Below the pieces are notes generated by a model. It saw only the letters and a list, made by a program, of their open reading frames with translations. It made no database searches and was not told where the DNA came from. A stretch of DNA of 64,000 bases from Lingula anatina. Its lineage: Eukaryota > Animalia > Brachiopoda. Of this stretch, positions 1,741-62,700 are shown one piece after another. The translations under genes were made by a program, and so were the position numbers. The stretch spans positions 10,478,001 through 10,542,000 of the forward strand of contig CM120641.1 of the NCBI GenBank assembly GCA_051362555.1. Reading direction: 5' to 3'. The number at the start of each line of letters is the position of its first letter. Position 1 is the stretch's first letter.

Positions 1741-2021
1741 GATACAAGAGATGTTAGTCATGCTAAAATCACTGACATTTTGCCAGGATGTGTTAATATT
1801 GAAGGTTGCTGTCTGTGTCACTTTGTAAATAATTAATAGAATATCTAACTGTTGAACCAAGTTAGGGGTACTTAATGTACAAATAGTTTATTGTTATTAT
1901 TAACTGCATTTTACATATTTTGATTATATCGATTTCTTTGGTTTCTCTGTAAAAAAAGTATTCTTCTCAGTTATCTTAGATTCTGTGGATTCACTGCACA
2001 TTTTGGAAAATTTCATTTCAG

Positions 2022-4292: not shown

Positions 4293-4342
<50 letters not shown>

Positions 4343-29500: not shown

Positions 29501-30725
29501 ACATTGAGAACTATGCTAATTGTGCTGTTGTTAATGTAGCAGTAATCTGGTGTAACAAATTGCTGTCCAGAAGTACCTCTTTTGAGAGTATTTGACCTTT
29601 CATTTTTTTCTGAGCAAAATGTTAATAGCATTTCATAACCAATCAAATAACTGATTTTTCCCTAAATGATTACACATACAAGGTTTATTGTTAATTCAAT
29701 ATCCACTTCATATATAGATTATTTTAGGATTTCTTTATTTAAAATTTTACCCAGGGCTCTGGTGGTATGCTGTCATTCTGTAATTTTCCCTTCGTGTTTG
29801 ATGCTCAAGCCAAAACACTTTTATTACACACTGATGCAGTCATGCAGATGCAGGTAAGTCACATCATCAGAAAGGTACTTAAAATGAACAGAAAGGATGA
29901 AATATTACAGTGTATTAGGTTTCAGTCTCTTATTTATATTTTTAATATATATTAATGATTTTATTTTAGAAATTGATAAAGTGGGTGCCAATAATATATC
30001 ACGTTTCTATGTCGGACTTTTTGGAAGACAGACATTGGCTAAATTTGAACTATTATTGCTTTAACGTGGACACTTAGCTGGCTGTTGATGAAGTCCATCG
30101 GAGGAACTTTAGCAGTTTGTTCATTCCAACCATTGATCCTGTCAACCCGTGTTTGGTGCTATACATTGATCGCAGGAGTGTGGTTCAAGACACAATAAAC
30201 CAGCTTGCAAAGCAAGGCAGCACAGATTTCAAGAAACCTCTCAAAGTAAGCACCCATGCAGCTGTCAGCAGTTTATTTATATAGTTACATAACTGCTTGC
30301 TTTTTCATTCCAGTGTCATTGTATACTGTATGTATTAATGAAATATAATGATGATAGCAATGAAACTGTATATTCATAGATAAATTGATTTATATTTACT
30401 TTAAATTTGATCACTGTTGAAAAGTTACCTTTATATACAGTTCACTTCTTAGTATGGTCTGTATATTATTAAATGTTTTCATCTGGCATTAATCTTTTCC
30501 TATCTTTTCCTAAGCTTGCTGTATAGAAATATACACCATGGAATGATGATTGCTCTGCTTGATCATATGATAATGTGCATTTCTTGCATCTTGTATTTTG
30601 TGTCTTGACAGTCAGTTTCTTCTTGTGTAACTAGATTTATACTATATTTATGAAGTTTTTTAAACTGCATGTGTGTAGAGTTTTTTGCTTCGTTTCATTT
30701 TTACTGTTTTCTGCTCAGGGAATCT

Positions 30726-30777
<52 letters not shown>

Positions 30778-39646: not shown

Positions 39647-41909
39647 CTAATACTCCAGATTTTGCACTTTGGCATTATCAGCAGGTATGAATATGAACTT
39701 AATTTCCTGGCCCTGCCCTGTCCCTTCACCAATTGTGATGGTCTGCTGTTTAGGTGATGCCCCTGAGTGAGTTTGCTGGACGGCCAAAGTCTCAGACTGC
39801 GAGGTGACCACTGACATCTGACCAGAGTGACCTGATAATAGACTGCCACCTGTGTGTATTGGCTGTGTATGATCAGCACTGCTCTCAAGCTGCAATAACT
39901 CTTGTTGAATGTTATCCTCACTGGTTGAGTAGTCCGTGGGGTGGGGGTGGTCATTCCCCTCCCCACCATGAAGACTTGATATGGCCATCTCTACACCATC
40001 CATGTTTGAGGAAGGCAACAGAAAAGTACTGTCCATAACATGAGATGTTGGAACTTTTGTCAACTGACCAGAAGGCTGGACAACATAAAACGGTTCATGG
40101 GATTTCATATGCTCTTCCAGTTTGTTCCGTCGATAGAATCCGCGATGACACAGGCTACATTTGTAAGTAAACTGATGATTATGCACTGCATCCATGTGCT
40201 GCTTAAGATTGGATTTCAGAGTAAACGTTTTATCGCACTCTGGGCACTGTACTCTCTCTACGCTGTTAGTCTCGTGAATCAGTCTTACATGTCTCCGCAT
40301 GTTGGGACCTTCAAAAAAGCCTTTACCACAATAAGCACAAGTGTGTGACTTCTTCCCAGTATGTGTCTTCTTATGTTTGTAGAGAGTTTTAGCTGTTGTG
40401 ACTACCTTGTGACATTCATCACATTCATAATGTTTGTTACGTATGTGTGCATCTTGAATGTGATCCTGCAGATAGCGTGCATGTTTGAACGACCTGGGGC
40501 ACAGGTGACACAGGTGCCTTTCTTTTAACTGGTGCACTCTGTACTTGTGCTCTTTTAATAACTGTTCACTGTTGTAGGCTTTGAAGCATTCGTCACAGTG
40601 ATAGGATCCAAGTTTTTCACTGTGACATCTTTCTGTATGAGTATGTAGATTCACCACCGAAGCACCACATAGCATACAGATCACCTTGGAATTCCCTTTC
40701 ACAGCATTTAGATATGCAGACTCTTTTGGATGTTTTATACTTATATGAACAGATAGATTTTTCTTGGATGTAAACCACCTCTTGCACAAGTTACACTGAT
40801 CATTTCTTATGATCGTTTTCCTTTTTGTTTCTGCTTTAAGACGAGATATATAGTTTTCAAAATTATTATCTTTCTGATGTGCTCTCTGGACATGTACAGC
40901 AAGTCTATTTCTTGCTAAAGTTTTCCCACAAATTTCACATTCTGCAATTTCCACATTTAATTTTTGCTTGTTATTCTCTAGATCAAAATTCCCCACCTCG
41001 ACTGGTCCTAATCCCTCTAAAACTTCAGTTGATACTAAACTGCTCTCACAGACCTGTGAACTATCATAATCTAAGAATTCCCCTTTTATTTCCTTAAGCA
41101 GTGTAGAAGGTTTCTTCTGTCTGGAACTCCTCCGTCTGGCAAATGTCTGAACATCATCCACAGATCGACTTTTCTCTTTGTCTACATCCTTACTTTCTAT
41201 AGGCACTGCTTCTGTTTCAATGACACCTAGAATATAACATATAATTTACTCATACTTCCAATACAAATTTGAGTGTAGCTATATGAAGGCTTTAACAGCC
41301 AAGGAAATAGTGAACTACAAAGCACGACAAATCCCATCAATTTACACAACAGTAAGCACAGATGGAAAGAGAACAACTTTGGACTTTTAACATTTTTACT
41401 GATAAAATGATAATGAACTTTAGTTCTTACTCACCATCATTATATGATGAAGGTTCGGCTGAATAACTTTCAAGATGACTGACAGTCTGTAAATGATGTA
41501 GTTTGCGCTTTTTGCTTTTAGTCTTCTTTGTTAGTCTTGTGACTTTGTCCGTTTTATGACTTAAATTGTTTGGAGCAGCATTTTCCTCTCGTTCTCCATC
41601 TTTAAATAGTTTCCTTTCCTCGTTTGTTCTGACAATTTCACTAATACGAAGTATTTTGCAACAGTACCTTTTCTCGAAATCACTGGCTATATTGCCAGAA
41701 AACATTAATTTTAAGCTTGGTGACTTCTCGGGAAAAGACTCGGTGATCTTTTGAATTTCTATTCGTCCATTCTCATGATTTTGCTCGTCAAGTGACGTGT
41801 AGGATATAATACTTTGCGTGCTTTGGCTGTCTAACTGAGAAATGCACTGAAAGAATGTCTCTGGCAACCACAGCTCTAAACCAGACACGCGATTTTCGGG
41901 GTTTTCCAT
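39647..41909 (-). CDS. C2H2 zinc-finger protein (~684 aa, about 9-10 fingers)
   Basis: Exon 1 41909-41435 (MENPENRVSGLELWLP...) with donor GTGAGT; exon 2 41226-39647. Total 2055 nt in frame. Repeated CxxC-x12-HxxxH(H) motifs with the linker HTGKKSHTC. Confidence 0.9.
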
Positions 41910-42038
41910 GGACAAAGAAAAGTTGGAAGTTAACTCACTGTCTCAATGTTTTCTGTCGTAGTGGTTAACGAAAGAAGTGCCCGGATGAACAAGATAAGCC
42001 GGTACCTAAACTTGCCCTGAGACGAAAGGGGGAAACTG

Positions 42039-42046: not shown

Positions 42047-43540
42047 TGCCAGCTCACGTTCGAAACAAAGTCTACTTAATTTTTGTGTTAACGTTACTAA
42101 TTTAAATTTGTTATTTATTTATTTGTTTATTAATTTATGAAAAGATGTACTTATTTGTCAATGTCCACAACTGCACCTTACTTGTAGAGGTGCATATCAG
42201 TAAAGCAGCCAGAATCTGAATCATAAATAGGCCCCTGCACATAACGAAACCGAAAAAAAGGCCGGAAAAATTTATACCACCTGATCAACATAGGCCTATG
42301 ACTTCACTGGAAATACCACAAATGATAGGGATATAAGTGCGCTCTACCGCTCATATGAACATCCGATTGCATAACATTTCAAGATGCAAGAGTCACATAT
42401 GGTAGAAATTACACCAGAAGAAGGTGAAGTTATTTCCACAAGACGCCGAGATGAACGGCGGCATATCTTGCTATCGTCGACCGGGGCATCAGTAGTCGAG
42501 GCTGACAAGGTAAATTAAACACTAAGATTTCCCTTAATTTCAGCTGTGGCATTCGAAAGTGTTATTATTTCTCTTACGATTCTCTGACCGATTTCAGACA
42601 CTAATAGCGTGTTGTTTCATGCGATATGTAGACCTACTAGTTAACAGTAGGCCTAATAACCCAAGCTTATATATTCCCTCATATAGGCCTACCTTGGGTC
42701 TACCCTCTGATATATCAATGACCCACTAAAATACAGTACAGCACCAGACTGTGCGTCGGAGAGAGAACTATAACATCCTACAGTGCTTTGTGACCGGAGT
42801 GACCTACATTCTCTACACGAAGTCTGAGCAAACCCGCGGCCGTTAAATTATGAAAGCGGGCACCTTCCAGACCTTCAAACGGCACCTGGCAGGACTCGGT
42901 TAATGGTTGCGTCTTGCAACCACTTTCTCGTTGAGGCAACTAGCAACCAAACCTCACCAGGCAGCAGTAGTCCGACAACGCAACTGTTTGTCTGGCACGT
43001 AGCTGTCGAAAAATTGTACATTTGTCGTATGAACCATATTCAAAGAAACATGAGCAATGAGTAATCTAGACGAAACTGAAAGCAATTTTCGTTCGTTAGC
43101 GATCCAAGTTAGACCACAGGGCAGTTTCTTTATTATTCGTTCAAGGGACCGTCAGCGGGAGATCGTTACCGATCAGAGCGAGACGAGAAGGGAATTTTTC
43201 TATTTGTTCAAGGGACTTTATTAGCGGAAGATCGTCAGGGAAAAACCCGAAGGTTTGACTGCGTTCATTAGCAACTGAGCGAATGCTAATGTGGAGCCCC
43301 GCAAGAGCAAAATTTATTTAGGACCTACATATCAGGCTGAGATAGTAACCCCTAACTACTGAATGATAATTTGGCATAAAAATCTACGTGCTCTAACAAT
43401 GCCGACTGCAACCAAAATACAAACTGCACGAGATAAATCCGCAATTGAATTTTATTAATTTTTTTTAAAATTTTTATTTTTTAATCCCCCTTTTGGATGT
43501 TTTATTTTTTAAATATGTTTTTCATTTTATTTATTATTAA

Positions 43541-43580
<40 letters not shown>

Positions 43581-44121
43581 TTACCCCCCCACCTCAAAAA
43601 TATTAAACCATGGGTAAAAAAAAAAAAAAAAAAAAAGCCGATAGGTGCGTTGAATACGAAACTGAATAGCAATATTGCGTTGACAAAGTGATGCTCTTGT
43701 TTACCCGAATTTCGTTATTGCACAAAATTGAACAAAACGAAAGAAAAGTTGTTGTTTGGACATTTTTCCGAAGACGTCAAACCAAGGACGTAGATCTATA
43801 TACAGTTCAATATAAGTCCTTGGTCAAACACACTATTACGTTGGCCTCTCACCTAGGCTGCATTCACAACCAAAACAAAATATGGCCGATCCACTTGAAA
43901 GCTTTCCGCGTAAACCCCGGGGGAATCGATTCAGCGCCTATTATGGGATTATGATCTGTTAGTTCGCAGAGCAACTTTCTCTGAATGCACCTTGCACATT
44001 TTTTATGACTCTCTATTTTAAAAATTAAATTAAATTTTTAAATTATTTTCAAAGGAATCAATTCTGATAAAAATAAGCCATTAAATTGATTATGTTGATG
44101 AACTAAAACATTTTTTTTCAG

Positions 44122-46574
44122 ATCTTTTCTATTCCAACTTTAGGCATTGATATCAGCGAGGTGTACAGAAATGGAACTTATTATTGTATGGTACACGCTG
44201 TCAATGAAGACAAAGGTTTGGGATTACAGTGAGTACATCTTATTGGTGATGGCTGTCTGCATTAGTGGTGGATCCAGGATTTCAATTTCAAGAGGGTTAT
44301 GTATTCAAGCGCCCGGGTTAATACTAAATGGCGCTATTCACCTATCATTTAAAAGTCTACAGTTAAGCATATTTCAACTATATCCTATTTTTTATTTTCT
44401 ATATTTTCCTGATTTATTAACTGTTATATTTGTATTTCATTTAAATTTAGGAAAAATGACGAAATACTCGCCATACGGCTCGAAAAGGAGTTTGTATCTC
44501 TTTCTAAAGATATCGCGGAACTTTTCAACAAAGACGTCGTTGAGATGGATACTTTTGTGTTGGTAAGTTATTCAAGCTCGTTTAAGATTTCTTATGGACC
44601 CCAGACCATGGGCGTCCGCAGAAAACTTTCTAGGTGGGGTCAAAGTCATTGAAGGGGGAGAGATAATGATTGGCTGGGTATCCACAATAAAAATGCAGTT
44701 CCCATTGAGATCCCCCCCCCCCCCCCGGGACGCCTATGCCCCAGACCTCAATTGTTGAGACTCACAGCGCATATTCTAGGCCTGTTAGTTTCCGCAATTT
44801 TACAAGACAAAATAACAGTAAAGGTATAATGAATCGTACAGATTTTAGGTCGCTTAAAAGATGAATTGACCCGATTTCTCTTCTTTAGTTTTTGTACACA
44901 GTTAAAAAAACACAGAGAAATATAGCAGACAGGATTAAGCATTTAAAGATTATTTACAAGTGTTTTTTTTCAGTCTCATTCTTGCAGCCAAATCATAAGA
45001 AACAATCAAAACTATTTATTCTAAAATAAATAAATTAAACAAAAGACATTTGTTTTCCTGATTCCTTTGTTTGAAGAACGTGCTGCATTATTTTGCTTTT
45101 GTTGCGTTTCATAGATAACTCGCAGACTCAATAAAAAATCGGAAGATGAAGTAGAATTCCTTTACTACAAAATCGAAGTGAAAGTTGACATTTTGAGGGG
45201 CAGAGGTACGTTTTCACTTTCTCTTTCCAGAAAAGTCTTTATTCTCTAAACTAACCAATAAAAGCAATTAAATCAAAGAAATAATTTGTAATCGGAATAT
45301 TGTTTTATTGCAAAGTGTAAGAATATAAAACATTGGATTTTTAACTTGTTAGCTAACTAAATTCACTAAAGTAAATGATTTAATTCTGTTGCTTGTGTTT
45401 TGCAGGAGGAGAGGATATTATAAATTTCGTTGTGTCGAGATCGCTGCTTGCAGTGATTGACATCGTCATTCCCGGTCACGGAGAGATATCTGATGTCAAA
45501 TCCGGCACTGTTACAACTTGCAATATCAAAAGCCTGCAGTCCGGAGATTTCATAGCACCAAACGCCAGTGGTCAACCTGTTGACACCCCTCATCAGCGTA
45601 AGATTTCGGATCGACATTTTATGTTCGTTTTTTATTAATTAAAAAGCCCTTTGCTACGTAGGGAGAACGATGGTGATGGTTATCAATGTAATACTTGCTG
45701 CTTTTCAACTTTTCTATTTCTTTTATTTCTTTTTTCTGATAAGAGAAGCGTTTTTTTCCCGTTTACTTATTGGACGTGAACTTAGCTTGATTCCACACCA
45801 AAAACTAGCATATTCTTTTCAATCATGGTGTATAAAGCATTTTAGTTCGAAATTAAACAATATCCGTAGCAGTGGTAGTAACAACGATAACAATTCAGAA
45901 AAGTCTTCTCTTTTAGACAAACTGCAAGTTTTGTCTTATTCGGGAACCGACAACAGACGAGATCAAGATGGAAATGTTGTTTATGTGTTTATCATAAAAG
46001 ACTCCTCGAACGGCCACGTGCTGTGTGTTGACGGTGATGGAGTAAAGTTTGAGGTAATCTGAACAATCAATTTAATGACTTCTCTTGACTCTTGAATCTG
46101 ATAGATTTCTTTTGACGTCACTTTATTATACAGCGCACGTTAAAATACATTTTATTGTATTGTTTTAAATGCTGACAACTTCAAATTCAAATATCTTAGT
46201 CCGCACTCGTACTCAATAAACATTCAGTTGTTTATTATTAGAGAACAAGTTTATTCTAGGCAATATTCACGCAGAGTCAAACAGTTAGACGAAAATGGTC
46301 AAATTTCCAAAGTAATTAAGACTTTGAGACCAAGCAGAATATGTAACAGATTCGATGAAGGATAAGTGGGTGGGTTTAACAATATAAAACGCCCGTGAAA
46401 ATGCAAATATTATTTAAAGCATTATCATTAGTGACTCATATTTTCTCCAGGGAACAAATGTGCCAAACAGTGCGGAGATTCGGTCAAAGACAACTGTGCA
46501 TAATTCGTATTTCCTCGGTGGCCGTTACAATGAGAATATCTGGTACTTCGAATCCCTGATTAAACCAGGTATTA

Positions 46575-46605
<31 letters not shown>

Positions 46606-46964
46606 CGCGCGCACACACACGAAGGATCGAACTAATTTTTTACCCTGAAGACTTACGATTCGCTATAAATATTTTAACACAAAGATCATGCTCTATCCGA
46701 TGTACATTGCGTATGGGATTTTCAGGTTACTTTCTCAACAGCACAGACACCGAGGTCACACTCAAAAAGTTACACATCAATACGCGCCAACCGCTTGAGC
46801 AAGATGTGTTGTTCCAGTTGTTTCGTCGAAACGAAAGAGGGCACCACAAGCTTTTGACCATGACTGGCAACGAATTTGTTGAGGCTGAAGAAGACCACGA
46901 CCGTGTCAACAAGCCCATGTGGAAGGAATGTTTTGGTTTTTTATGTTGTTGTCGTCGTTATTAA
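44122..46964 (+). CDS. IL-1/IL-18-like beta-trefoil protein with N-terminal PDZ-like segment, copy A (5' end unresolved)
   Basis: Exons 44122-44228, 44451-44562, 45115-45205, 45406-45597, 45917-46053, 46451-46568, 46726-46964 (996 nt, in frame). PDZ-like: VHAVNEDKGLGLQKNDEILAI. Trefoil-like: KLQVLSY...VFIIKDSSNGHVLCVDGDGVKFE|...SYFLGGRYNENIWYFESLIKPGYFLNSTDTEVTLKK...DVLFQLF. Tail ECFGFLCCCRRY*. Confidence 0.75.
44607..44738. mobile_element. 132-bp hAT-like MITE specific to copy A
   Basis: TIR CATGGGCGTCC / GGACGCCTATG with 8-bp TSD CCCCAGAC (44599-44606, 44739-44746). The paralogous site at ~52001 is empty. Confidence 0.85.
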
Positions 46965-48860
46965 CGCTCAAGCTTGCGTTGTTTGCTGTGTTATGTGGAC
47001 CACAGTCACCCCTGCAGACCCTAACTTTCAGTGGACACTGAAAGTTCACCTACCGTACTAGATGCACGTGGGTCTGATTAATTATTAGCCAGTTCTTGAA
47101 CATTAGATGTTACATAGACAATGCATTGAAGCGATTTCAAGAATATCTTTATTTACAAATGAGTTTTGAAATCGCCTTTTTCAGTTGAATTTCGACGTGT
47201 GAAGTTGTTGCATGGTATAATTTCTTTTTTATGCAGTTAGGGTAGGCCTAAAGATTGTCAAAAAAAAAAAAAAAAAAAAAAAAAGAAAAAAAAGAAAAAA
47301 AAAGTTGAGATCTGGTAATAAAAGGTCTACATAATGGTTGTTTGAACGAATCTTAAAATTATTAAGTATATATTTCACGACAATGACTAAGTAAGCAAGT
47401 GCTCATTTCATGGATATCAATCAAAAATGTATTTCTGGCATTTATTAATTTATATTATATATATTAGAACATCGATTATATTACCATAGCATTTATTATT
47501 TTCGTATTGACTCAGACGCCTTTTAGGTGTCTCTTTAAGATGACTAATTTTTTTACATAATGGCAGCAAATGACAGTGGGACCGGTATTGATTTTTTCAG
47601 TTATGCGTTGTTTAGTTGACGTCAGAATGGAAAAAAACTGATTGATCTGCCAGAATTAAGTGGTTTATCAAAAGAAATGGTAGGAATACGAGACTGCAAT
47701 GGAAAGTAAATTTTTTTCTTTGGTATTAGCTGAATCTTAAAAACATTGCCAAACTCGAATCAAAAGTTACCGGTGCTAAGAAACCGAGCGTCTGTGTAAC
47801 CTGGGGCCCACCAAGGTGTAGGGCCTAACAGAGTGTCCGCCCTCCATTAGATTCATACAGGTTAGCATTAGCGTGACTAAATGAGTCAAAATCTTAGACG
47901 GTTATTTCCTGCGTACGGATGGATGTGAACCCTATATCACAGATTACTGTCTCACATGACACTGATCCATTCCGAGTTATGAGTCTACTGCCTTTATATT
48001 TGTATTAATCGTAGTATTAGGTTGTAAAATGTGTTCCATTTATCTTTTTTATACAATAGCAGCGATAAAATTTGTATTTTTACTGTTTGTGATAAAAGTG
48101 CATGATAAGAGATGAATGATGCATATGTTATACATGTGCACGTGTTTAGAACGTGTCCCAAAGCACTCATAGTACCTATCTTGGATGTCTCTGACCAGTG
48201 TTAAAACGTCCTAGAACAAATAGGCTTAACAAGTGCCAAATAATATGGGGTGTGGTAGCATGACCAAATATCATCTTCCAGGTCACTGAATGTTGGAAAA
48301 CAAAAGTCTTTCTAAAATCAAACTCCTTCAATACGAAATAACATGTATAAGTTGCTACGTTTGGTGTCATTGGGGATCGGTTGGCAGACGCCCGAGCCCA
48401 CCCGTTTCCTACACATTATACTGCTAAGTACCCCCTTTGCATCACTTCTGTCCTCTCAGTGGTGTTTTTGCAGCATCTTATGTTTTTTTAATTATATTCA
48501 ACGTGTGTGTGTATATGCTTTTGACAGACTTTGAAATATGTCCTTTTTCATTATTTTTGTATTTTCTAAAATTGATGCCAGTCTTTTTTTTAGTTTGTTT
48601 CCCCGGCTATGAATGTGGGGGGTCTAATGATTTTATGCCTGGCGTTATTGTAATAAAGTTCATTCTATTACAATAACGCCAAGCATTATTGTAATAAAGT
48701 TCATTTTGCTTTTTTTTTTCAGAAAATAGCAGCGGCCGAGCTGCCGTTTCATTTGCTGGTCAGAATGTTATACTATTTTATAGTCATTTTTTGTGCGATT
48801 AGTGTCAATAAAATAATAACCACCAGCTGCACGGAAGATTGTATGTTTTTTTCATCATTT

Positions 48861-48914
<54 letters not shown>

Positions 48915-49061
48915 GTTGACCTTATCCGTCCATAGTCGGCGAGGATTTTACCAAAAACTAGGTCCTCACTCAGCTGGCCCCTTAACTTCAGAGTATTAAC
49001 AGAGTAACTCAAGCAAACCCACTGACACTGGGACAGCACGCGAGGTACGGGATCTAACTCT

Positions 49062-49296
49062 GGAAAAGACTGATCCTTTGAATTTCTATTATTCCATTCT
49101 CATGATTTTGCTCGTCAAGTGATGTCAGTAAGATATAATACACGTCACTTAAGCAAAATTATGAGAATGGACTAATATATAATACTTTGCGTGCTTTAGG
49201 TGTCTAACTGAGGTATACACTGAGAGAATGTCTCTGGCAACCACAACTCTAAGCCAGACACGCAATTTTCAATGTTTTCCATAGACAAATAAAAGT
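49062..49296 (-). pseudogene. Truncated, degenerate copy of zinc-finger gene exon 1
   Basis: Aligns by eye to 41731-41925 (GGAAAAGACT...CCATTCTCATGATTTTGCTCGTCAAGTGA...GAATGTCTCTGGCAACCACA) with indels and a local inverted duplication. Confidence 0.8.
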
Positions 49297-50599
49297 CTTT
49301 GATTGCACCTTATTTGAAACTGAATCATACATGCACATAACGAAACCGGAAAAAATAGCCGGAAAAATACCACGTGATCAACATATCACATATGACTTCA
49401 CTGGAAATTCCACAATCGGTCAGTACAACGGATGTAAGTAGGTCCTATCGCTCATATGAACATCAGATCATTGCATAACATTTAAAGATGCAAAATACAC
49501 ATACGATAGAAATGACACCAGAAGAAGGTGGAGTTATTTCCACAAGACGCCGTGATGAACAGTGTCATGTCTTGCTTTCGTCGACCAGGGAATCGGTAGT
49601 CGAGGATGGCAAGGTAAATTAAACGATGAGAGTTTTCCTACATTCCAGTTGTGGCATTTGAAAGTTATTGGCTTAATTCTTATTTCTCTTACGATTCTCT
49701 GTCCGATTTCAGACTCTGATATCAATAAGATAGCGCGATGTTTCATTACACGCGACATGCAGACCTATAGGCCTACATGGCCCTAATAGTACTAGTGCTA
49801 ACTCAAGCTTATATATTCCCACATAGACTTTGGGCCCACCCTCTGATATCATGGACCCACTAAAATAGTGTACAAAATCACACTGTACGTCGTGGAGAAC
49901 ACTAAAATATCAAATACATAATGCACGCCGAAAAAAAAGTGCTCAGTGACCGGAGTGACCTACATTCGGCACAAAAAAGTGTAGGCCCTAAACGAAGTCT
50001 ATGCAATGTTACCGTTAAATTATGAAAACGGACACCTTCCAGACCTTCAAACGGCACCCGACGGGGCTCGGCATTATATTAATGTTGTGTTTTCAACAGA
50101 CAACCAAACCTCACCAGAAGTTGTCCGACAACACAACTGATTTCCTGGCACGTAGTTGTGCCGAGGCACACTGTCTGAAATTTGTGCATTTTATCATTTA
50201 AACCATCTGCAAACAAACGTGATCGATGAATAATATAAACGAAACTGAAAGAGCGATTATCTTATTTGGTAGCGATCCAAGCGAGACGACAAGGTAATTT
50301 TCATATTTGTTCAAGGGACTTTATTAGCGGAAGATCATCAGCGGGAGACCCGAAGGTTTGGTTGCGTTCATTAGCAACTGAGTGAAAGATGCTTATGATT
50401 TGCACGAGCAAAAATTATTTACATATTAAGCAGGCTGAGATAGTACCACCTAACTACTGAGTGATAGGGCCTAATTTGGCATAAAAATTCACGTGCTCTA
50501 ACAATTCCGACTGCAACCAAAATACAAACTACACAATCTGCAATTGAATTTTATTTGAGAAAATATTAATCATCATTTTTACTTTTAATCCCCCTTTTG

Positions 50600-51214
50600 C
50601 ACCCTGAGCTTCAGAGCTAACTTGACACTAACCTTTTCACTGTAGCCTATCTCCATCGTGTCAAGTAACCTCTGACCAGATTCGATTGCCTCCGCCGCCC
50701 GCCAATCAAATTTAAAAGCCCGCACTCAATGACTCATTAAACGATCTAGCCAATGAACGCGAACGAGTCAAAGCGCGCTTTGTTCAAATCCGGACCAATC
50801 AAAGATAAGGCTGAATATCAGGGTCTTGCCGTAACCTGTGGGCAGCACGCAAATAACATCGTCTCTCAGTAGATAATGATGCAGGGCATCATACTGCTCT
50901 GGTTTCAATTCCGATATACTCCATGCTTTCTTTGTGTACGGTTATGCACTCGGAACCACTCGGAACTACTCGGATGTCTCCGCACTCGACAATAACTATG
51001 TTGTTAGTATGGAGCTTGCGGAATCAGCCGAGGATTGCCGATTGACGATCAACCAATCAGCGTTTTCACCAAACTTTGGTGAAAAATTTTGAAACATGGA
51101 TTCGATTGGCTTATATAAAATAGGTCAAACTATTTTCGTCAGAGGTTACTTGACACGATGGAGATAGGCTACAGTGAAAAGGTTAGTGTCAAGTTAGCTC
51201 TGAAGCTCAGGGTG
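50600..51214. mobile_element. 615-bp non-autonomous DNA transposon with 77-bp perfect TIRs (hAT- or P-like)
   Basis: CACCCTGAGCTTCAGAGCTAACTTGACAC...CCTCTGAC and its exact reverse complement at 51138-51214. 8-bp TSD CCCTTTTG; the empty site is in copy A at ~43488. Confidence 0.9.
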
Positions 51215-51513
51215 CCCTTTTGGGATTTTTAAAATTATTTTATCTATTTTTTTTTATCTATTTCGTTATTGAACAAAATGAAAAAAATTACTGCTCGAAT
51301 AATTTTCCGATCACGTCACACACACCATTACGTTGGTCTGGGATTATGATCTGTTAGTCCGCGGATTATGCTCTGAATGCGCCCTAACACATTTGTTACT
51401 TGTCTTAATTTTTAAAAATCAAATTTAATTTTTGAATTATTTCCAACGCAACCATTTCTGATAAAAATGTGCTATTGAATAGATTGTGTTGATGAAATGA
51501 GACTTTTTTTCAG

Positions 51514-54500
51514 ATTTTTTCTGTTCCAAACTTAGGCATTGATATCAGCGAGATGTATAGAAATGGAACTCATTACTATATGGTACACGCTGTCAATGAA
51601 GACAAAGGTTTGAAGTTACAGTGAGTAAATCTTATTGATGATAGTTATCTGCATTAGTGGTGAATCTAGGGTTTCGATTTCAAGAGGGTTATGCGGTCAA
51701 ACGCCCGGGGTAAGACCCTGATGACGTTATTCACCTGTGAGATAACAGTCTACAGTTAAGCACATGCAAATTAGGCCCTATTCAATTATTTTCCAAATTT
51801 CCTCATTTATTTACTGTTGTATTTCTATTTTACTTTTATTCAGGAAAAATGACGAAATCCTCGGTATACGACTCAAAGAGGGATATGTATCTCTTTTTAA
51901 AGGCTATCCAGATATCACAAAACTTTTCAATAAAGACGTTATTCAGCAAGATACTTTTGTGTTGGTAAGTGTTTCAAGCTCATTTTTAATTTCTTATGGA
52001 CCCCAGACCTCAAATGAAGAGATTCACACCGCATATTCTAGGCCTGTTGGTTTTACAATACAAAATAACAGTAAAGGTATAATAAGTCCTACAGATTTTA
52101 GGTCCCCTAAAAGATGAATTGATCCAATTTCTTTTTTTTTTTTTTTTTTTTTTCATTCTCCCACCTACAACCAAATCACAAGAAAAAAAATCAAATCTGT
52201 ACATACACACACTGGACAATAGAAGTGTCACCCCCTGAATCAGAGTATAAATCAAAGTTACATGTATTAACTTGAAGAGGCGGAATATAAGCAATTAATG
52301 TCAGAATATCAATACAGTTGAATTGTTCAGTCAGAACCGCTTCTTTTGTGAAATTTGATGTTAATAAAATGATACCAGGAGCATGTCATTCCACAGTCAT
52401 TTATCTCCCCCAATTGATTCAGTAGGGGTGACACTTCTATTGTCCAGTGTGTGTACTAAAAATAAAAACAGAATGACAGATCATGTTTTGCTGATGACAC
52501 CATCGATGTCATTTGTCTTTATTTTTCACGAACAGCGCAATACATATCGCTTCCTTGCTCAGTTTTTCTTTTGATTGAAGAACGTAATATAAAATACAAC
52601 TTTCTCACTGCATTATTTTGCTTTTGTTACGTTTCGTAGATAACTCGCAGACTCAATAAAAAATCGGAAGAGGAAGTAGAATTCCTTTACTACAAAATCG
52701 AAGTGAAAGTTAGAATTTTAAGGGGTAGAGGTACGTTTTCACCTTCTCTTTTCATAAAAGTCCTTATTTTCCACACAGTAACAAATAAAAGCAATAAAAT
52801 TAAAGAATAATATGTAATCGGAATATTTTTTATTGCATAGTGTTAGACAATATAGCATCTGATTTTTAACTTATTAGCTATCTAAATTAACTAAACGAAA
52901 TAATTAATTCTGTTGTTTGTGTTTTGCAGGAGGGGATGATATTATAAAATTCGATGTGTCGAGATCGCTGCTTGCAGTGATTGACATCGTCATTCCTGGT
53001 CACGGAGAGATTTCTGATGTCAAATCCGGCACTGTTACAACTTGCAATATCAAAAGCCTGCAGTCCGGAGATTTCATAGCACCAAACGCCAGTGGTCAAC
53101 CTGTCGACACCCCTCATCAGCGTAAGATTTCGGATTGACATTTTTATGTACTTTTTGTATGAATTATAAAACCGCTTGGACATTTCTGTTCACAGTTACG
53201 TAGGGATGACGACGATGATGGTTCTATATTTGTTGCTTTTCACCCTATCTATTTCTTTTATTTCTTTTTTCTTATAAGAGAAACCTTTTTTTTTTTTTTC
53301 GTTTAACTTATTGGACGTGAACTGAGCTTGATACCAAATCAAAACTAGCATATTTTGTATAAAGCATTTTTATTTCGAAATAAACCAATATCCGAGGTTC
53401 GTAGCAGTGGCACATGTAGCAACAATAACAATTCAGAAAAGTCTTCTCTTTCAGACAAACTGCAAGTTTTGTCTTATTTGGGAACCGACAACAGACGAGA
53501 TCAAGATGGAAATGTTGTTTATGTGTTTATCATAAAAGACTCATCGAACGGCCACGTGCTGTGTGTAAACGGTGATGGAGTTAAGTTTGAGGTAATTTGA
53601 ACAATCAATTTAATGACTTCTCTTAAGTTATTGAATCTGATAGATTCCTTTTGATCGGACGTCTCTTTATTATACAGTGCACGTTAAAATTAATTTTATT
53701 GCATTGTTTTAAATGCTGATAATTTCAAATTCAAAGATCTTAGTCAATAAACATTCGGTTATTTATTGTTTAGAGAACAAGTTTGTTCTAGGAGATATTC
53801 ATGCAGTATCAAAGAGTTAGATAAAAATGATTTTAAAGAAATTCCCGAAGTAATTAAGACTTTGGGAGCAAGCAGAATAAGGAACAGACTCGATAAAGTA
53901 TAACTTGGCGAGTTAAAAAAAATCGCTCGTGAAAATGCAAATATTAAACCATTTTCATTATTGACTCAGGGGACAAATGTGCCAAACAGTGCGGTAATTC
54001 AGTCAAGGACAACTGTGCAGAGTTCATATTTCCTCGGTCGACGGTACGATAAGAATATCTGGTTCTTCGAATCCCTGATTAAACCAGGTATTCTCTCTCT
54101 CTGTCTCACTCACGCACACACAACACACAAACACACGAAGGATCGAACTAATTTTTTTACCCTGAAGACTTGCGATTCGCTATAATTCTTTTAACACAAA
54201 GATCATGCTCTATTCGATGTACATTGCGTGTGGGATTTAAGGTTACTCTCTCTCTCTCTCTCCCTCTGTGTGTGTGTGTGTGAAAGAGACACACACACAC
54301 ACACACACGATCAAACTAATCAAACTAACACAAAGATCATGCTCTATCCGATGTACAATGCCTTTGGGATTTTCAGGTTACTTTCTCAACAGCACAGACA
54401 CCGAGGTAACACTCAAAAAGTTACACATCAATACGCGCCAACCGCTTGAGCAAGATGTGCTGTTCCAGTTGTTTCGTCGAAACGAAAGGGGGCGCCACAA

Positions 54501-54672
54501 GCTTTTGACTATGACTGGCAACGAATTTGTTGAGGCTGAGGAAGATCACGACTGTCAACCAGCCCATGTGGACGGATGTGGACTACAGTCACCCCTTCAG
54601 TCACCGTTTCTGTTTAATTCGGTGCCCACTGAAAGTTCACCTACCGTACTAGTCGCACGTGGGTCTGATTAA
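51514..54672 (+). CDS. IL-1/IL-18-like beta-trefoil protein with PDZ-like segment, copy B (altered C-terminus, 5' end unresolved)
   Basis: Exons 51514-51620, 51844-51964, 52640-52730, 52930-53121, 53455-53591, 53970-54087, 54377-54672 (1062 nt, in frame). Same phases as copy A; WFFESLIKPGYFLNST motif. A frameshift plus deletion after EEDHD replaces the Cys-rich tail. Confidence 0.75.
52206..52453. mobile_element. 248-bp Tc1/mariner-type MITE specific to copy B
   Basis: TIR CACACACTGGACAATAGAAGTGTCACCCC and its exact reverse complement; TA TSD on both sides. Confidence 0.85.
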
Positions 54673-55260
54673 TTATTGGCCAGTTCTTGAACATCAGATG
54701 TTACAGAGACAATGCACTGAAACGATTTCAAGAGTATCTTTATTTAGAAATGAGATTTGAAATCGCCTTATTCAGTTGATTTAAAACGTCTGTAGTTGTT
54801 GTAAGCAACGGCTGTAACGGAACTTTTTTAAAGATTTATAGTTTAAAAGAAAACGTGTGGAGCCGTATATCGCTTTGTCTATCAATCTTCATAATGTAAT
54901 AAATGGAATGAATAGCTGTAGAAATAAGGTTTCTTTTGATATGTCACATGATGGGATAATTGGTATGTTACGCAGATATAGACGGTTCTTGGCACCCTAC
55001 ACCCTGTCTCCCTTTAAGACTGCGTCTGAATTTTCCTTTTTGAAGGAGCGTGAAGCCTAAAACGATTCTTCTTTTAGTGCTCTTAGACTGTTTATTCCTG
55101 TTTATTTAGAATAAAACACGACGTTTTTGTCAATCACATTTTCGATTTGCATTTTCCCTTTTTACTTGTAGTCACTCTGCGAATCAATATAATACGTTTT
55201 GAGGATATTCCAGTCACGTGGCCACAATGAACCTATAATGCATATCAACGAAATTATCTA

Positions 55261-55283
55261 TGACTCACCTCGTGGGAAATCCC
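55261..55283 (+). promoter_or_regulatory. Adjacent AP-1 and NF-kB consensus sites
   Basis: TGACTCA (55261-55267) and GGGAAATCCC (55274-55283), 80-100 bp upstream of the ATG at 55364. Confidence 0.65.
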
Positions 55284-55363
55284 GGTCAAGCCTTTTTCAT
55301 TTGCTGCATTCATACGACACCACAGAAAAGCTGGATACCATCGATGGTTAAAGTCTTAAATCT

Positions 55364-58023
55364 ATGAGCTGTTGCCAAACACGGAACAAAATGAAGGATA
55401 AAACAAAGCCGAAAATTTCGCGTGATTTTAGTGTTATCAGCACTACCAGTACGCTCATGGAGCGACCCAAGCTGTCTGAGATAATACAACAGGTCCGGTG
55501 CGAAGAGGAGCAGAGGTTGTGCTATCTAGAAGATGAGGTAAATGACTTTGAATTCGGTGCAAACTATTCGGAAAGTGGTTTGAATATTTAAAACAAATAA
55601 CCTCTCTTGTTGTTTGACAGCTTGCTTGGATAAAGTTTATACATACATAGTATGCGAGTTAATACGTTCTCCCTTTCTTCAAAGAGCCATTCAAGTCTCA
55701 ATCGTAGAAAGTTTCGTTCTCGCATACAGTCGTATAAGCTTAGATCTAAAGGTTAAAGGATGGAAATTTTTCTACGGTTGCAGAAATGTACATGTATAAT
55801 AAATGAAGCGCACAGGACACTAGTTCCGGAATTTTTGTGGTTATAGTTATACCATAGCTGTTTTGTTTTCCTTACATATCCGGGTTTGTTTAGTGTGGGT
55901 GCATATTTGCTCAGCGCCAGTCCTCTATTCTTTGAAAGTGTCTTACGCAAAGGCAAGGATCAGGTGTATATTTGACATTTGGTTGTCATATATTTAATTT
56001 GATTTTTAATACTGATATCTACACATATTAAGTCGATGCGTGATGGGATATGCGACTTTTTTTGGCGGGGGGGGGGGGGGGGGGATGATCTAGATCTGTT
56101 AGGAAAAAGAGGCATTTGACTTTAACTTCCCTAAACCTAGGACCCCAACACAATGTTAATCGGTTAGAATGTTTTTCTTTCAATTGCAGTGATTTCTAAA
56201 GATATAAATAGGGAGTGTTTTTTAAATAAATCATGAGCATAGATATAGTTGTTATCATTTTTCGGAAGGTGTGTTTCATGAAATAGTGAATTTTTCTCGT
56301 CAGTGTTTTTATTGCACTAATTTATTTGACTAATATCGGTATTTTTAGCAACTGACGTGAGGGTTTTACCTGTATTGCGTTTTTGAAAATGTTATTGATT
56401 GGAATAAAAATAGACATCGGGTAATCAAAGCTTTAGATGGACAAAATGGCGTATCCAAGAACTCTAGTATCTAATGATCATTTGTTTTATTTATTTACTT
56501 ATTTAATTTTGTGGAGAGCATCTAATGCTTTTAGCGCTTTGCCTCCATTTCTTTCGAATAAACGTTATTAAAAAAAGTATCTAGATAATGACAGTAATCA
56601 GTGCTTTAACATTTCAGAATGGTGACCATACCCTCAGGTGCCACGATTTTCTGAATGTCAAATTCCAAGAGGTCAAACTGCCTGACTGTCGACCGTTTCT
56701 GGAAGTCCACGGCACGAACCATCACGACGAGGAAGATGGAGCACGGAGTTTAGGATCCCAATTAAGGTAGAATTCCATCAATCATTTGGACGATTTCCAA
56801 AACTGTAGGGCCTACTTTTAAAAACGCGTATTTTACCTTTTATCATGTTCATGAAAATATAAAGACACTTAAGGTCGGAAATTAATGAGGGGAAATACTA
56901 TCAAATGAGTAGAATCGACAACATGATCGGCGGTTGAGGGCGGCGTTTAGATGACTCTCTCCTCTAAATCCTTAATGTCAATCTCTCAAAAGTGGACCGG
57001 TCCAGTTTAGTGTGCCGCTTGATGCGAAAAGGACTTGTAATTTGTTTACTATTGCAGAGCAAATGATGAGCTCTTAGGAATCATTGAGGGGCCAGATAAA
57101 ATGAACGATGAAGTTACAGCTGTCCTCGACATGGGACCATCCGAATTTATTGAATATGTTCAAGAATCCGTCAAAGAACTGGAGGAATTCATAATGGTAT
57201 GTCGCTCTGTCGCTTTTTTACATCAACTACCCAACCGCGCAGCTTGGATTTTTCATTGCTTGAATTTCTCGTAGTTATCATTTTTTTTAACCTTATCGTT
57301 AAAGAGTTGTTATTTGTATAATATAATCGAGTTCATTTCCTCCTGTCGATTTATTTTGGTCGCTTATCATCTGAAAATTGATTTTACGCCCACTTCACTT
57401 ATATACTCTTATTTATTGGTAACATTTTCAGATCTTTCGACGGAGAGAAAAAAATCCCACCAATGAAGCAAGACAATTCATCTACTTCAAACTTACCATC
57501 CAGATAAATCACACTGGTAAGCTGCTTTTATAAGCATTAGAATTAGATTAACTTTGAGGTGTTATGAAATTAATTGCATACCAAAATACTTGTTGCACAA
57601 TAGGAGAAATGGCCATAAATTGTGCCATAAATTGTGACTATGTCTAGTGAAAAATCAATCTGTATTCGTGTTGCATTTCTTTGGCAATCATGTTGTCACC
57701 ACGTCTTTGTAAAATCCTAGTATTTTCATCAGTTGATTAAAAGAAATGGGTCAAAGATTTTGCTCAAACTCTTACTGTTGCTTTCAGCTTCCGGGTACCA
57801 CGAAATAACCCGAATTAGCTGGGAGAGGCTGGAAGCAAGTATTGTCATTGATGATGGTGATAAAATATGGGACATCGAACCTGAGCCAACGTCTTCCACT
57901 TACTATGTCCAGTGTGCAGCTAACGGACAGTATTTGACACCATACGGATTAACGGAAAAAGAACGTATGTAAAGTTACATTCTTTTCTTAAACTGAATTG
58001 AGTTTCATGAATTAATGTGCACG

Positions 58024-58091
<68 letters not shown>

Positions 58092-59502
58092 TGTGTGTGT
58101 AAGTTATGGTGATGATGTTTTTGTTTTTATTTTCATTTTATTTATTTCAACGTCCATATTATTTGTAGATCAGTTATTTATATCAAGTTACCATGGGCAC
58201 CATGGAAGGACTGGAGAAATAGAAAATGTCGTAGTCATCGAAGACTATGAACGGGGATATATACTAGAAGCTTTTCCCAGAAGTAAAACGGTGATTTTCA
58301 ACCCTCAGGTATTACAAAGATATCAAGTGTCAGTGTTTAACCTGTAAATGTTACTGATATTCTTGTCACTTGCATTTGGAGTTTTTCAGAATCGATTTAA
58401 GTTGATTTAAAGATCGAATGAGTGTCGCTTGCATTAATATTTCATTCACAATGTGTTCTAAGGATTGTCAAAGACGTTTATTAAATTAAGCCAATTTGCA
58501 ATGGATTTTTACGAGTTTTTCGACTTATTAATAATAACTATTTTCTTTCATTCACAGACTAGCTCCGATGGTGCGGTTAGCTTAAGCAATGACACTCCTG
58601 CTGAGGAATGGATGTTTAAATGCATGCGCATACGGAAAAATGTCTTCTGTTTAGAATCTTTAAAGTTAAAAGGTATTCAACGAATTATTTCAATTTCGCA
58701 ATAGAACACACACAAACGCACGCGCGTTACTGGGCAAGATGGTATTAAAACAAAAATTTTCTGAAAGTTAACGTATTGGACGGCGATGAAACATCAATAT
58801 AAGGTATTTAAGCGAAAGTAAGTAACAAGTTCGAGGTTGTAGTAGTAAATTGGAAAGTCTACGTCAGTCACAGACAGATCATTTTAAGTATTTAATAATA
58901 AATAAGAAAAATGTGTCACCCTTATTCATGTGTTTCAGATGTTAGTGAATGATGTAAAAGCTTTATGTTTTTTATGTATATATTTTCAGGGTATTTCGTC
59001 AAGGTTAATGGCAACAAATTAATTTTGCGAAAGGACGTGGATTTTCAAGATCCCGAGTTTCAATTTGAATTTTATGAAGTGAAAAAAGTGATGCCTCATT
59101 ACAGAGAGTGGCCATCTTCTTCCTATCCAAATGAAACGGTCGACAAAGATATAGAAGAAGATATAGACGGTTTTGAGGTTATGATTAAACCAGAGGAAAC
59201 AAAGCCCGTGGAAAACGGTACCACTGGGACTAATAACGATTCTGGACCAGTAGAAACTAACCACACAAAGCCTGATATTGTGCCTGGGCCAATAGAAACC
59301 CGAGGACACAAAAAGTGATATTGTGCTTGGACCAGAAGAAACTGACGATAGAACAAGTGGTGTCAAGCCTAGGCCAGTGAATACAGATGAAATGGTATTA
59401 AGTCCATTGAAACCAGAAGACAATTTGAGAATCCCAAAGAGAAGTCGATTGAAAGCGTGTTTCAGCTGTTGTTGGACTTTTTTGAAGAAAAGAAATCGCT
59501 AA
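55364..59502 (+). CDS. IL-1/IL-18-like beta-trefoil protein with PDZ-like segment, divergent paralog C (435 aa as assembled; ~496 aa if a 1-nt insertion is corrected)
   Basis: Exons 55364-55537, 56618-56766, 57058-57196, 57432-57516, 57788-57964, 58169-58308, 58558-58672, 58990-59318 (1308 nt in frame). Same intron phases as copies A/B; no signal peptide. Motifs GSQLRANDELLGI, QLFISSY and WMFKCMRIRKNVFCLESLKLKGYFVKVNGNKLILRKDVDFQDPEFQFEF. A second frame continues to TAA at 59500-59502. Confidence 0.78.
58026..58100. repeat. (CT)n(GT)n compound microsatellite
   Basis: Perfect runs within an intron. Confidence 0.95.
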
Positions 59503-59726
59503 GTAACATCATTGAAGACTGACACTGTTTATCGAAACTATGTCTACGGCGAAATAATGTAATTGATTACTGACTTTTGCTTCAGTGTTCAATCTAATAT
59601 TTTTACAATTGTGTACAGAACTTGTAGATGCAGGGTCCCTTAATGAAAAAGTAGTGCGTCCTTACACGCTTGTTTATGTTAACAGTGACTTGTAAATATT
59701 TGTTTTTTCTTTCTTCTTTTTTTTAG

Positions 59727-59745
59727 ATTTATTTATGTCAATAAA
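59727..59745 (+). promoter_or_regulatory. AU-rich element and polyadenylation signal of paralog C
   Basis: ATTTATTTA (overlapping AUUUA) followed by AATAAA, ~230 nt after the distal stop. Confidence 0.4.
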
Positions 59746-62700
59746 TTCGGGCACAGACTCGTAATGCACTTTTTATCCCGCTGTTGTTATTTTTTGTGTA
59801 ATATTCAACGCCTTTCAGTTTGATAAAGATAAAACATTTACGTAGTCGAAGAATATATCCGTAGTTCGTGAAACCAACGTGGACTAAACCATTATATCCG
59901 GGAGTATAAGACACCTTTCAATAAGCAACCGGAAAAGTAAGTGCAGCTCTTGAATTCCTCTTCTGCGAAATGAATTAATGTAAGTAGGGCTTCTTCCTTG
60001 TTCCGTCATCATAATACAAAAGAAAAGTCTTGAGAGGAGAGTGTTACCTCCGACCAGGATTATTTTCATTCCTGTCCGTTATTTCCTTGTGTCACAGGCC
60101 ATGATGATCTCTTTATCTCCTCTCTATTTCTGTGCGTCATCCCCTCAAATGCCCCAATTTAATGTTATTATATGTTTTTACCTAAACAAATATTAGATCT
60201 TGGTTAAAAAAGAAAAAAGAAAAAAAAAACGGAAAAACTTCAAACTGTGTGGGTCATCTTGGGCCACGATTTTTTTCACTTTTTTCACTCTCTTGTGCAA
60301 TAAAGAACACAGTTGCTGTATGGGATTTTATTAGTACAAATTTTAGATAAAAATATAGCTGGATTCAGATCAATTGTATTTCATGATAGATGGGACGTTC
60401 TGAACATGCTCCTGTCTAATTTTGCCTTTGTACGCCTACACAGTCACAGTTGGCCTACAATCTAGTCACGCGGAACGTTCGAGTTAAACAACATCGCGAC
60501 AAACAAATGTGTTGGGATGTGCTGTTAAGCTATATCATGATTGTGCTTTTCTCTCTTTCTCGTCGCTATCATGAGTGATCAACAGGCTCATAGTCCCGCC
60601 GACACTGTTACAATCATTTACTTTAATTTTCATTGATAAAGGGTTGGAGGATGTTTCTCTTTTCTCTTGTTCACTGACTGTGCTGTCTTGTAAAATATAT
60701 CATTGCTTATTTAGACCAATATAAATGCATGGCCTATGGGTTCCTAACGCTAGTTATGATGTTATACAGTTTTCGTGTAAACAACCACATTTTATCCTTT
60801 CTATGTGGATAATTCTATAACTATTAGGTAAATATGTTTCATACATTTAATTTTTAGAAATCCTAGTTGTTTTTCTTTTAATATTTAGATAAACATTGAA
60901 ACTCGCATATTAAACAAAGCCAGAAGCGTGATTGGTAATAATAAATTTTGTGTTAAGAACACAGTAACTTCAACACATGTAAAAAAAATCGCGCACAAAA
61001 GCTTATTATGGCGGGAGAAGAAAAGGATCCTCAGAATATGTAGTAATATTTTCATGTATTACATGCATTATGCGTAATAGAAGACACTGGGTATTAACTT
61101 ATGGGAAAAGTATCGAAAACGTGATAAATATATCAGTTAAATTGAACGGAACTACTCGTCGTTCGGTCCTTAGCGGCACTGCCCTCATAATCATTACTAC
61201 TTTTTTTGTCAAAAGTAAGGAACGAAATTGTTAATATCAAGTCAAATTAGTGAATCGGAGGCATCAGTTTATCTGTACTGACGAATGTAGGTGAAAACAA
61301 CAAAAAGGGATTATGCAGCTATGATAAACTTGAGTATAAAAAATATGTCTAATAATATTCGTCATAAAGTATTAAAATTTCTAAAATTCTGTGATATAGT
61401 GGGAAACTTTTGTAACAAAGTAAAACGATTAATCTTGTAATTGATTGACTTATAGATATTACTTGATAACACGACGTAGGACCACATTAGCGTCATTAGT
61501 TTGTTGTATAAAACATTGACACATGATACCACACGCAGCAGCTCACAATGACAAGAGCTGACAATGAACTTAAAATAAATTTTGTCCGAGGCCAAAAAAT
61601 CCTTTTAAGAATTTGCCTGACATAGAACATTTTAGAAAATGCATCTTGAATGCGATCAAGATCAATTCTAATGGATTTCTTCTGCAACAATCTCCCTGTC
61701 CATAAACAGATCTAAAAATGTTCTTTTCGAACATTTTCGAAATGCAATCATAATTTTCTTTGTAACTTTATTTTATATTTATCGAAAAATAAAACGCAAT
61801 ATTTTAAAACGGTATAAGGTCTCAGCCCATTTAGTATAACCGTGATTAGATTGAACGTGTAGAAATAAAACAAGCGGTTTTTAATTTGGTAGGAGTTCAC
61901 ATTTACACATTAAGATCATTGGTCGTTTACACATTGTTTCTTCCTTTCCGTTTATGCACTTAGAATTATGAAATATAGCACCACCGCCTGCTGATTGCAA
62001 AACAAACCTCGTCACTTTAGAGACATTATGTGTGCAGGATGATCTATCTATCCACATCCACATGCGTAAGCATAAGATATGAGCTGCGCAGTGCGCATGC
62101 TGGTGTTATGACCTTAAACACACTAACATTTACAGAGGTAGGGTTATTTGCACGTCATTCCTCCTAACTACATCGCTCATACAGTAGGCGGGAATACTCC
62201 TAGCTGACTCACATATTTCTACGCCCAGCTAACGGGACAGATCGACAGACAGCAAAGAGAACGCTCACTTCACCTGATCCCCAGAGAATATGCCGTGGCA
62301 GGTGAGAAAAATTATTCCTAGCGTGACGTTATTATAATACGGTTGCCGCCTTGTTCAGATAGCGATAAGTTGCATTATTCAGGCAAGTAATATGCTAGCT
62401 CACGGCATACCAAACTTAAGATTTCTACGTTTAAATATGCGCCTTGAACTTAATATCCGTGTAATGTTATTTACAGACGGAACCGACACAATTTCATTGC
62501 GGGTCGTCACATGAATGTCACGATGTTGACAATGACATTATCTCAGATCACTTAAAAGGAGTCCGTCAAAGAAGTCTACTAAGAGTTTATAAAAGAACTT
62601 TTGGTTATTCAAGAATATGTTTAACATACATATCCATCTCATTATGTCCCACTGACTGAGACCAATTGTACTATAAAGTGATAAATCAGAAAAAGCACGT

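Follow-up and report, generated by a model that had tools for sequence, protein, structure and literature searches.

Three tandem genes of the brachiopod Lingula anatina specifying a predicted IL-1-type beta-trefoil behind a PDZ-like head: probable divergent members of the IL-1anc family

A 64,000-nucleotide stretch of the Lingula anatina genome (assembly GCA_051362555.1, contig CM120641.1, positions 10,478,001 to 10,542,000 of the forward strand; hereafter the window, whose numbering is used throughout) contains three tandem genes, designated A, B and C, which probably specify divergent relatives of the interleukin-1 (IL-1) cytokines. The region was read directly and scanned for splice sites, and GT..AG introns were joined into open frames. 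The three genes, and the features described within them, are on the forward strand, and each gene has eight coding exons. Gene A (42384..46964) specifies 373 amino acids (aa) from exons 42384-42509, 44122-44228, 44451-44562, 45115-45205, 45406-45597, 45917-46053, 46451-46568 and 46726-46964; this is a splice-site model, the final frame of which closes at 46964. Gene B (49488..54672; 395 aa) is a recent duplicate of A with exons 49488-49613, 51514-51620, 51844-51964, 52640-52730, 52930-53121, 53455-53591, 53970-54087 and 54377-54672. Gene C (55364..59502; 496 aa in the RefSeq frame) is an older paralogue with exons 55364-55537, 56618-56766, 57058-57196, 57432-57516, 57788-57964, 58169-58308, 58558-58672 and 58990-59502, and has an alternative short first coding exon (56437..56466) in RefSeq isoform X2.

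An initial annotation of this DNA had proposed three tandem, homologous, multi-exon genes, and this is borne out by the GT..AG splicing, the open frames, the shared intron phases and the paralogy scores. It placed the start of the cluster at 44122, which is the second exon of A, the first coding exon being 42384-42509; the end that it gave, 59502, holds in the RefSeq frame of C but not in the window, where the frame stops at 59318. The intron phases are identical in A, B and C (0,2,0,1,1,0,1). A and B share 86% identity over 356 aa, and C is about 25% identical to both; aligned by Smith-Waterman, A and C scored 151, and 500 shuffles averaged 37 and went no higher than 64. Between A and B the ratio of nonsynonymous to synonymous substitution (dN/dS) was 0.38 over 353 codons and 0.28 within the putative trefoil, dS was 0.175, and the introns were only 76-92% identical. 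The intact frames and the dN/dS values argue that A and B are both under purifying selection. An old duplication would have given rise to C and to the ancestor of A and B, and a recent tandem duplication to A and B themselves, the tail of B having changed afterwards. Intron 1 of B contains a perfect 78-base inverted repeat (50599-50676 and 51138-51215) around some 460 bases, the interior of which is partly similar to 8318-8396; it is likely an insertion of the miniature inverted-repeat transposable element type and is absent from A. A palindromic NF-kB-like site (55274..55283, no strand assigned) lies about 80 bases upstream of the first ATG of C; the window as a whole shows no excess of sites of this kind, its count of four matches being reached in 24 of 100 shuffles.

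Single exons of C and of A each retrieved one database protein at 100% identity, belonging to LOC106164190 and LOC106164235, respectively, both of which are annotated as 'uncharacterized' in the Lingula anatina RefSeq set. A is identical at 358 of 372 aligned residues to XP_013397538.1 (LOC106164235 isoform X2), B shows one difference from residue 114 onward to XP_013397536.1 (isoform X1, exons 1-3 of which are A-like), and residues 1-430 of C are identical to XP_013397456.1 (LOC106164190 isoform X1). RefSeq appears to merge the tandem genes A and B into the single locus LOC106164235. Since the sequence of A differs from that in RefSeq, the window is likely to represent another allele or assembly.

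Reads from four of nine available RNA runs (9.5-12.4 million records read per run) were mapped to 58110-59800. The counts were 4, 10, 33 and 81, nearly all of them exonic, and indicate low-level transcription of C. The junction from 58308 to 58558 was spanned by 21 reads in three of the four runs, and that from 58672 to 58990, which divides the signature motif discussed below, by 11 reads in two; 11 loose read ends at 58169 run on into the end of exon 5 of C. The junctions of the initial annotation are thus covered by reads for the last two of C, and those of A and B agree with the RefSeq models. An extra base at 59299 (59299..59299) causes the window frame of C to stop at 59318, the RefSeq frame continuing to 59502. 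It is absent in 22 of 25 RNA reads (2/2, 4/4, 7/9 and 9/10 per run) and is likely an assembly error. Two of the runs showed about 40 exonic differences from the window in 0.8 kb of the mapped interval and the other two showed 2, which may point either to strong polymorphism or to a sister species under the wrong label.

The C-terminal domain of each protein carries an [F/L]ES motif late in its sequence (A288, B291 and C320). The motif is FESLIKP in A (46547..46568, counted from exon starts and ending at intron 7) and B (54066-54087), and LESLKLK in C (58651-58672). The elements FESLIKP|GYFL (A, B), LESLKLK|GYFV (C), LQVLSY, LFISSY, KLILRK and FQFEF, quoted in the initial annotation, are all present. 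The motif is absent from single reading frames because intron 7 separates its ES part from GYF in all three genes. In RefSeq isoform X3 of LOC106164235 (window 54043-54377) an inner exon-7 donor and a shifted exon-8 frame appear to remove the ES motif; the isoform may represent a splice form that does not signal, or noise. The putative IL-1-type beta-trefoil of A occupies 45490..46830 (approximately residues 174-328, exons 5-8; boundaries estimated), and is proposed on the motif and strand pattern, judged by eye, and on the ESM Atlas neighbours. An FES-x3-PG motif is described as family-wide in the vertebrate IL-1 family (PMC12108812).

The intron phases provide a second line of evidence. In IL-1beta the coding region shows the phase series II,0,I,I,0, whose final part is 1,1,0, and the trefoil is encoded by the final three exons (PMC4880838). 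Introns 2-6 of A, B and C likewise read 2,0,1,1,0, a phase-0 intron lying directly upstream of the ES exon; here the trefoil region is on four exons, and phases 1 then 0 precede the ES exon as in the 1,1,0 of IL-1beta. With assumed phase frequencies, the probability of this anchored five-phase series arising by chance is approximately 0.004-0.005, or 0.012-0.014 at any of three positions. The central introns were matched to those of IL-1beta and not to the phases of IL-1anc, the invertebrate and fish family introduced below.

In the ESM Atlas, where similarities below the 0.9 line are leads only, the A protein (P0003) fell closest to a PDZ-labelled echinoderm cluster (0.95; 197/256 features; PF00595 on 18% of members), followed by PF00340 IL1 clusters of 356-358 aa (0.94; 194 features), which made up 15 of the 30 hits and are similar in length to the PDZ-bearing fish nIL-1F (352 aa; PMC7144542). 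With the trefoil region of C, IL-18 clusters were found at ranks 2, 3 and 5; at 0.86-0.87 the likeness to IL-18 claimed earlier stands as a lead. When the PDB was searched with a profile of A plus C, IL-33 chains took ranks 2-5 among the 8 hits, at non-significant E values of 0.12-0.15. By eye, C and LanaIL-1.1, a published IL-1anc of this species, share 10 of 25 ungapped identities around the ES motif and further matches in the same order (unscored).

The N-terminal half of the genes, which the initial annotation did not describe, is PDZ-like. In A the segment is encoded by exons 2-4 (44122..45135), with an LQKNDEILAI strand at residues 77-86, and it has counterparts in B and C. By eye this strand shows 7/10 identities to LanaIL-1.1. 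A bacterial PDZ profile built from 38 domains gave a weak match to residues 77-89 of A (P0003; 0.8 bits), a score reached in 11 of 1000 shuffles, and a weak match to the expected strand of B (P0005; 15 of 1000). In the first 40 residues no hydrophobic leader was found by hydropathy, the one criterion applied here to the earlier claim that the proteins are leaderless; the best 11-residue means were 1.71 (A), 0.83 (B) and 1.15 (C), following charged N-termini.

This arrangement resembles that of IL-1anc, a family described by Fontenla-Iglesias et al. (Nat Ecol Evol 2026, PMC13736523; preprint PMC12338702). IL-1anc proteins are defined by an N-terminal PDZ domain, which a subset lacks, and a C-terminal IL-1 trefoil with [F/L]ES, usually without a signal peptide; the trefoil is spread over three to five exons with two central introns whose phases are conserved with respect to the FES motif (PMC13736523). 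Their distribution runs from cnidarians through to fish; echinoderms, bivalves and crustaceans have expanded sets, and two Lingula anatina members are listed, LanaIL-1.1 (LOC106166605) and LanaIL-1.2 (LOC106154450) (PMC13736523). The novelty implied by the initial annotation is not supported, PDZ-plus-trefoil IL-1anc proteins having been published across Eumetazoa, this species included. The loci of A, B and C gave no match in any of the seven supplementary files of that article, and the accessible main text of the preprint (PMC12338702) does not mention Lingula. The published screen began from PDZ profiles and the article itself warns that very divergent members were possibly overlooked (PMC13736523); a PDZ region too degenerate for Pfam may explain the omission of A, B and C.

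We consider it probable that A, B and C are divergent IL-1anc members combining a degenerate PDZ-like head with a predicted IL-1-type beta-trefoil. Kinship to IL-1 is likely on the basis of the [FL]ES motif, the IL-1beta phase series, the Atlas neighbours and the likeness by eye to LanaIL-1.1, so that the original proposal of IL-1-superfamily cytokines is supported in part; no sequence search yielded a significant IL-1 match. Several results weigh against the assignment. Pfam returned no IL1 or PDZ match for any of the three proteins at E up to 10, none passing the PF00340 gathering cut-off, and no significant IL1 match was found in the PDB by sequence. The PROSITE IL-1 pattern matched 0/3 proteins when written as in the initial annotation (a similar printed form exists), in agreement with the departure from the signature reported there. 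A phmmer search with C over 1.84 billion representatives recovered C itself, the A protein (P0003, E 3.6e-6) and one low-complexity match, with no other IL-1anc at E 0.001, and a word search with P0003 retrieved only itself. The top Atlas neighbour of the C trefoil was an unrelated bacterial cluster (0.88), and the trefoil of RsgI5 came first in the PDB profile search (E 0.039). Because this bacterial protein outranks IL-33, the FES..GY motif alone is not specific to IL-1. The PDZ profile support is weak for A and B and misses C (P0002; 133 of 1000 shuffles reach its score), and an hhalign PDZ comparison gave a probability of 1%. AlphaFold modelling, for which only two distinct sequences were available in the alignment, gave pLDDT (predicted local distance difference test) values of 39.7 (full length, three sequences) and 34.4 (trefoil, two sequences), and fold searches with these models returned unrelated folds and were uninformative; the beta-trefoil predicted earlier was not confirmed. 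Intron 7 (phase 1, after the ES motif) is extra relative to IL-1beta, no IL-1anc synteny marker was present among the nine neighbouring open reading frames (ORFs) scanned in the 64-kb window, and ligand-receptor binding is undemonstrated across IL-1anc as a whole (PMC13736523).

One other interpretation is that the C-terminal domain is a different beta-trefoil, such as an AbfB/CBM42-like or mussel-type lectin, fascin or an FGF-like protein, whose resemblance to IL-1 is convergent. The best PDB sequence matches, all short of significance, were to RsgI5 (E 0.039-0.3), the trefoil of which (PDB 9fnk) is presumably AbfB/CBM42-like, to FGF1 (E 0.2), to SeviL (E 0.93) and to a GalNAc/Gal lectin (E 0.83); fascin and ricin-B clusters occur in the Atlas list of C at 0.84-0.85. 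However, no three-fold internal repeat was detected, the observed score being reached in 603/1000 and 402/1000 shuffles; A, B and C gave no Pfam match to the lectin-type trefoils (AbfB, ricin-B, MytiLec) or to fascin; and the ES motif occurs once here as opposed to three times in RsgI5. In the Atlas list of C the fascin and ricin-B rows share 101-108 features as against 145-150 for IL-18 rows, and a convergent trefoil would leave both the IL-1beta phase series and the PDZ-like head unexplained. We regard it as very unlikely. Duplication of one locus by the assembly (A and B being two haplotypes), or decay of one of the two copies, either of which would leave two working genes rather than three, is if anything harder to credit. 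RefSeq does place both as isoforms of LOC106164235, the tail of B is frameshifted, and the species is polymorphic, since the C alleles of two RNA runs differ at dozens of sites; nevertheless distinct A-type and B-type exons 4-8 occur in RefSeq X1 and X2, so that both sets exist there too, and the intron divergence, dS and dN/dS reported above are joined by frames that are open through the trefoil in both genes.

A further reading accepts descent from IL-1anc and concerns the ends of the proteins. The C-terminus of A (46917..46964) is cysteine-rich, basic and aromatic, with four of the seven cysteines of the protein in its last 15 residues (P0003; hypergeometric P 5e-5, post hoc), and that of C (59455..59502) is cysteine-rich and basic, with three of twelve (P0002; P 0.004, post hoc). 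Despite an approximately fourfold difference in the length of their tails, A and C each finish in a group of cysteines that has basic and aromatic residues next to it. Such clusters are typical palmitoylation sites. B has no cysteine in its last 15 residues, and the identical tail is found in RefSeq X1; compared by eye with A, its new tail (54553..54672) results from a frameshift and a deletion, has lost the cysteine cluster, and reads into the counterpart of the 3' untranslated region of A. In addition, isoform X1 of C has a cysteine pair at positions 3-4. Among published IL-1anc, Gly2 and/or a cysteine or cysteine pair stands at the start of several sea star and amphioxus proteins, and a basic-Trp-x-Cys stretch lies close to the N-terminus of three cnidarian ones (PMC13736523, Table S2); these are possible lipidation signals. 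The main text of that article gave no hits for palmitoyl, myristoyl, acylat, lipid or cysteine. In human IL-1alpha the uncleaved form carries myristoylation and associates with membranes, the acylation being on its N-terminal part (PMC8339906).

A and C might accordingly form a C-terminally lipid-anchored branch of IL-1anc, in which palmitoylated cysteines would hold the mature cytokine on the membrane after removal of the PDZ domain, with B freed by its frameshift to give a tethered and a soluble form; we put this forward as a speculative idea, more probably wrong than right by a wide measure. The stricter version, in which A and C would act as tethered or intracellular signals and not as released cytokines, B being a recently derived soluble form, we hold to be unlikely. 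It would account for cysteine-rich ends common to A and C in spite of their low identity and very different tail lengths, and absent in B; the N-terminal cysteine pair of C isoform X1, the Gly2/Cys starts of the published sea star and amphioxus proteins (PMC13736523) and the membrane association of human IL-1alpha (PMC8339906) point in the same direction. Against this, the tail statistics are post hoc, the acylation is putative, and the cysteines could bind metal or form disulfides instead. The tails offer a hypothesis of membrane-tethered ancestral IL-1 that would be cheap to test and, if it were true, then together with the Gly2/Cys starts elsewhere, lipid anchoring may be a recurrent and unreported means of IL-1anc control.

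If A, B and C are IL-1anc members, then by analogy with that family (PMC13736523) they would be synthesised in the cytoplasm as pro-forms that lack a signal peptide, their expression would probably be induced by infection, damaged cells or pores would release them, whether or not they were cut in the linker, and signalling would be via an Ig-TIR receptor. Induction of IL-1anc by immune challenge is documented for lamprey, for sea urchin and for a sea anemone, and of those proteins assayed a single one, from sea urchin, was cleaved by caspase (PMC13736523). IL-1 outside the vertebrates is already in print, for this species among others, and the number of Lingula IL-1anc genes would go from two listed to five. 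A screen seeded with PDZ profiles passes over members whose PDZ is too degraded for Pfam to recognise, which makes published counts lower bounds; the retained vertebrate IL-1beta phase series is a check on homology that is independent of folding.

The nine neighbouring ORFs scanned for domains contained Lamin Tail Domain repeats, RCC1/HECT and C2H2 zinc fingers, with four giving no match. Lamin Tail Domain repeats are numerous in a multi-exon gene at 1980-14300 (+), with four in the 770-aa frame 1980-4292 (E 2.5e-34); the gene likely also has a leader, and our impression is that the repeat type is more bacterial than animal. It is followed at 23501-38040 (+) by an RCC1-repeat plus HECT ubiquitin ligase, which we take to be HERC3/4-like, an intron of which contains a 146-base tandem repeat array with partial duplications (32653-35275; 12 copies at 32938-34716). 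A C2H2 zinc-finger gene (39647-41942, -) is head-to-head with A, its upstream frame ending some 440 bases before the ATG of A. Some published IL-1anc loci are linked to IL-1R, GCC2, ESD, EIF2A or TRAF3, and further IL-1 genes lie outside the conserved loci (PMC13736523).

Among known systems, the bacterial RsgI5 trefoil (PDB 9fnk) shares the FES-x3-(P)GY motif and was the top, non-significant PDB profile match; it differs in carrying the motif three times. Fish nIL-1F is nearer in architecture, with a PDZ and an IL-1 domain in about 350 aa (352 aa in the PDZ-bearing lumpfish protein); it has seven coding exons compared with eight here, possesses the full signature, and has been suggested to be an IL-1beta antagonist (PMC7144542). 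With vertebrate IL-1beta, IL-18 and IL-33 (PF00340, PF15095; PDOC00226), A, B and C have in common the phase series II,0,I,I,0 (PMC4880838), the Atlas neighbours and an FES-x3-PG-type motif. They depart from these in that the PROSITE pattern is unmet, no Pfam or PDB match is significant, an extra phase-1 intron follows the ES motif, a PDZ-like head replaces the IL-1 propeptide, and the tails are long. From IL-1anc, of which LanaIL-1.1 and LanaIL-1.2 are the nearest by eye, they differ in the cysteine-rich C-termini of A and C and in a PDZ too degenerate for Pfam; they share with it a PDZ-like head, a linker and a C-terminal [FL]ES-bearing domain, a length below 500 aa, no evident leader, a multi-exon trefoil region, tandem expansion, and a species that already has two listed members.

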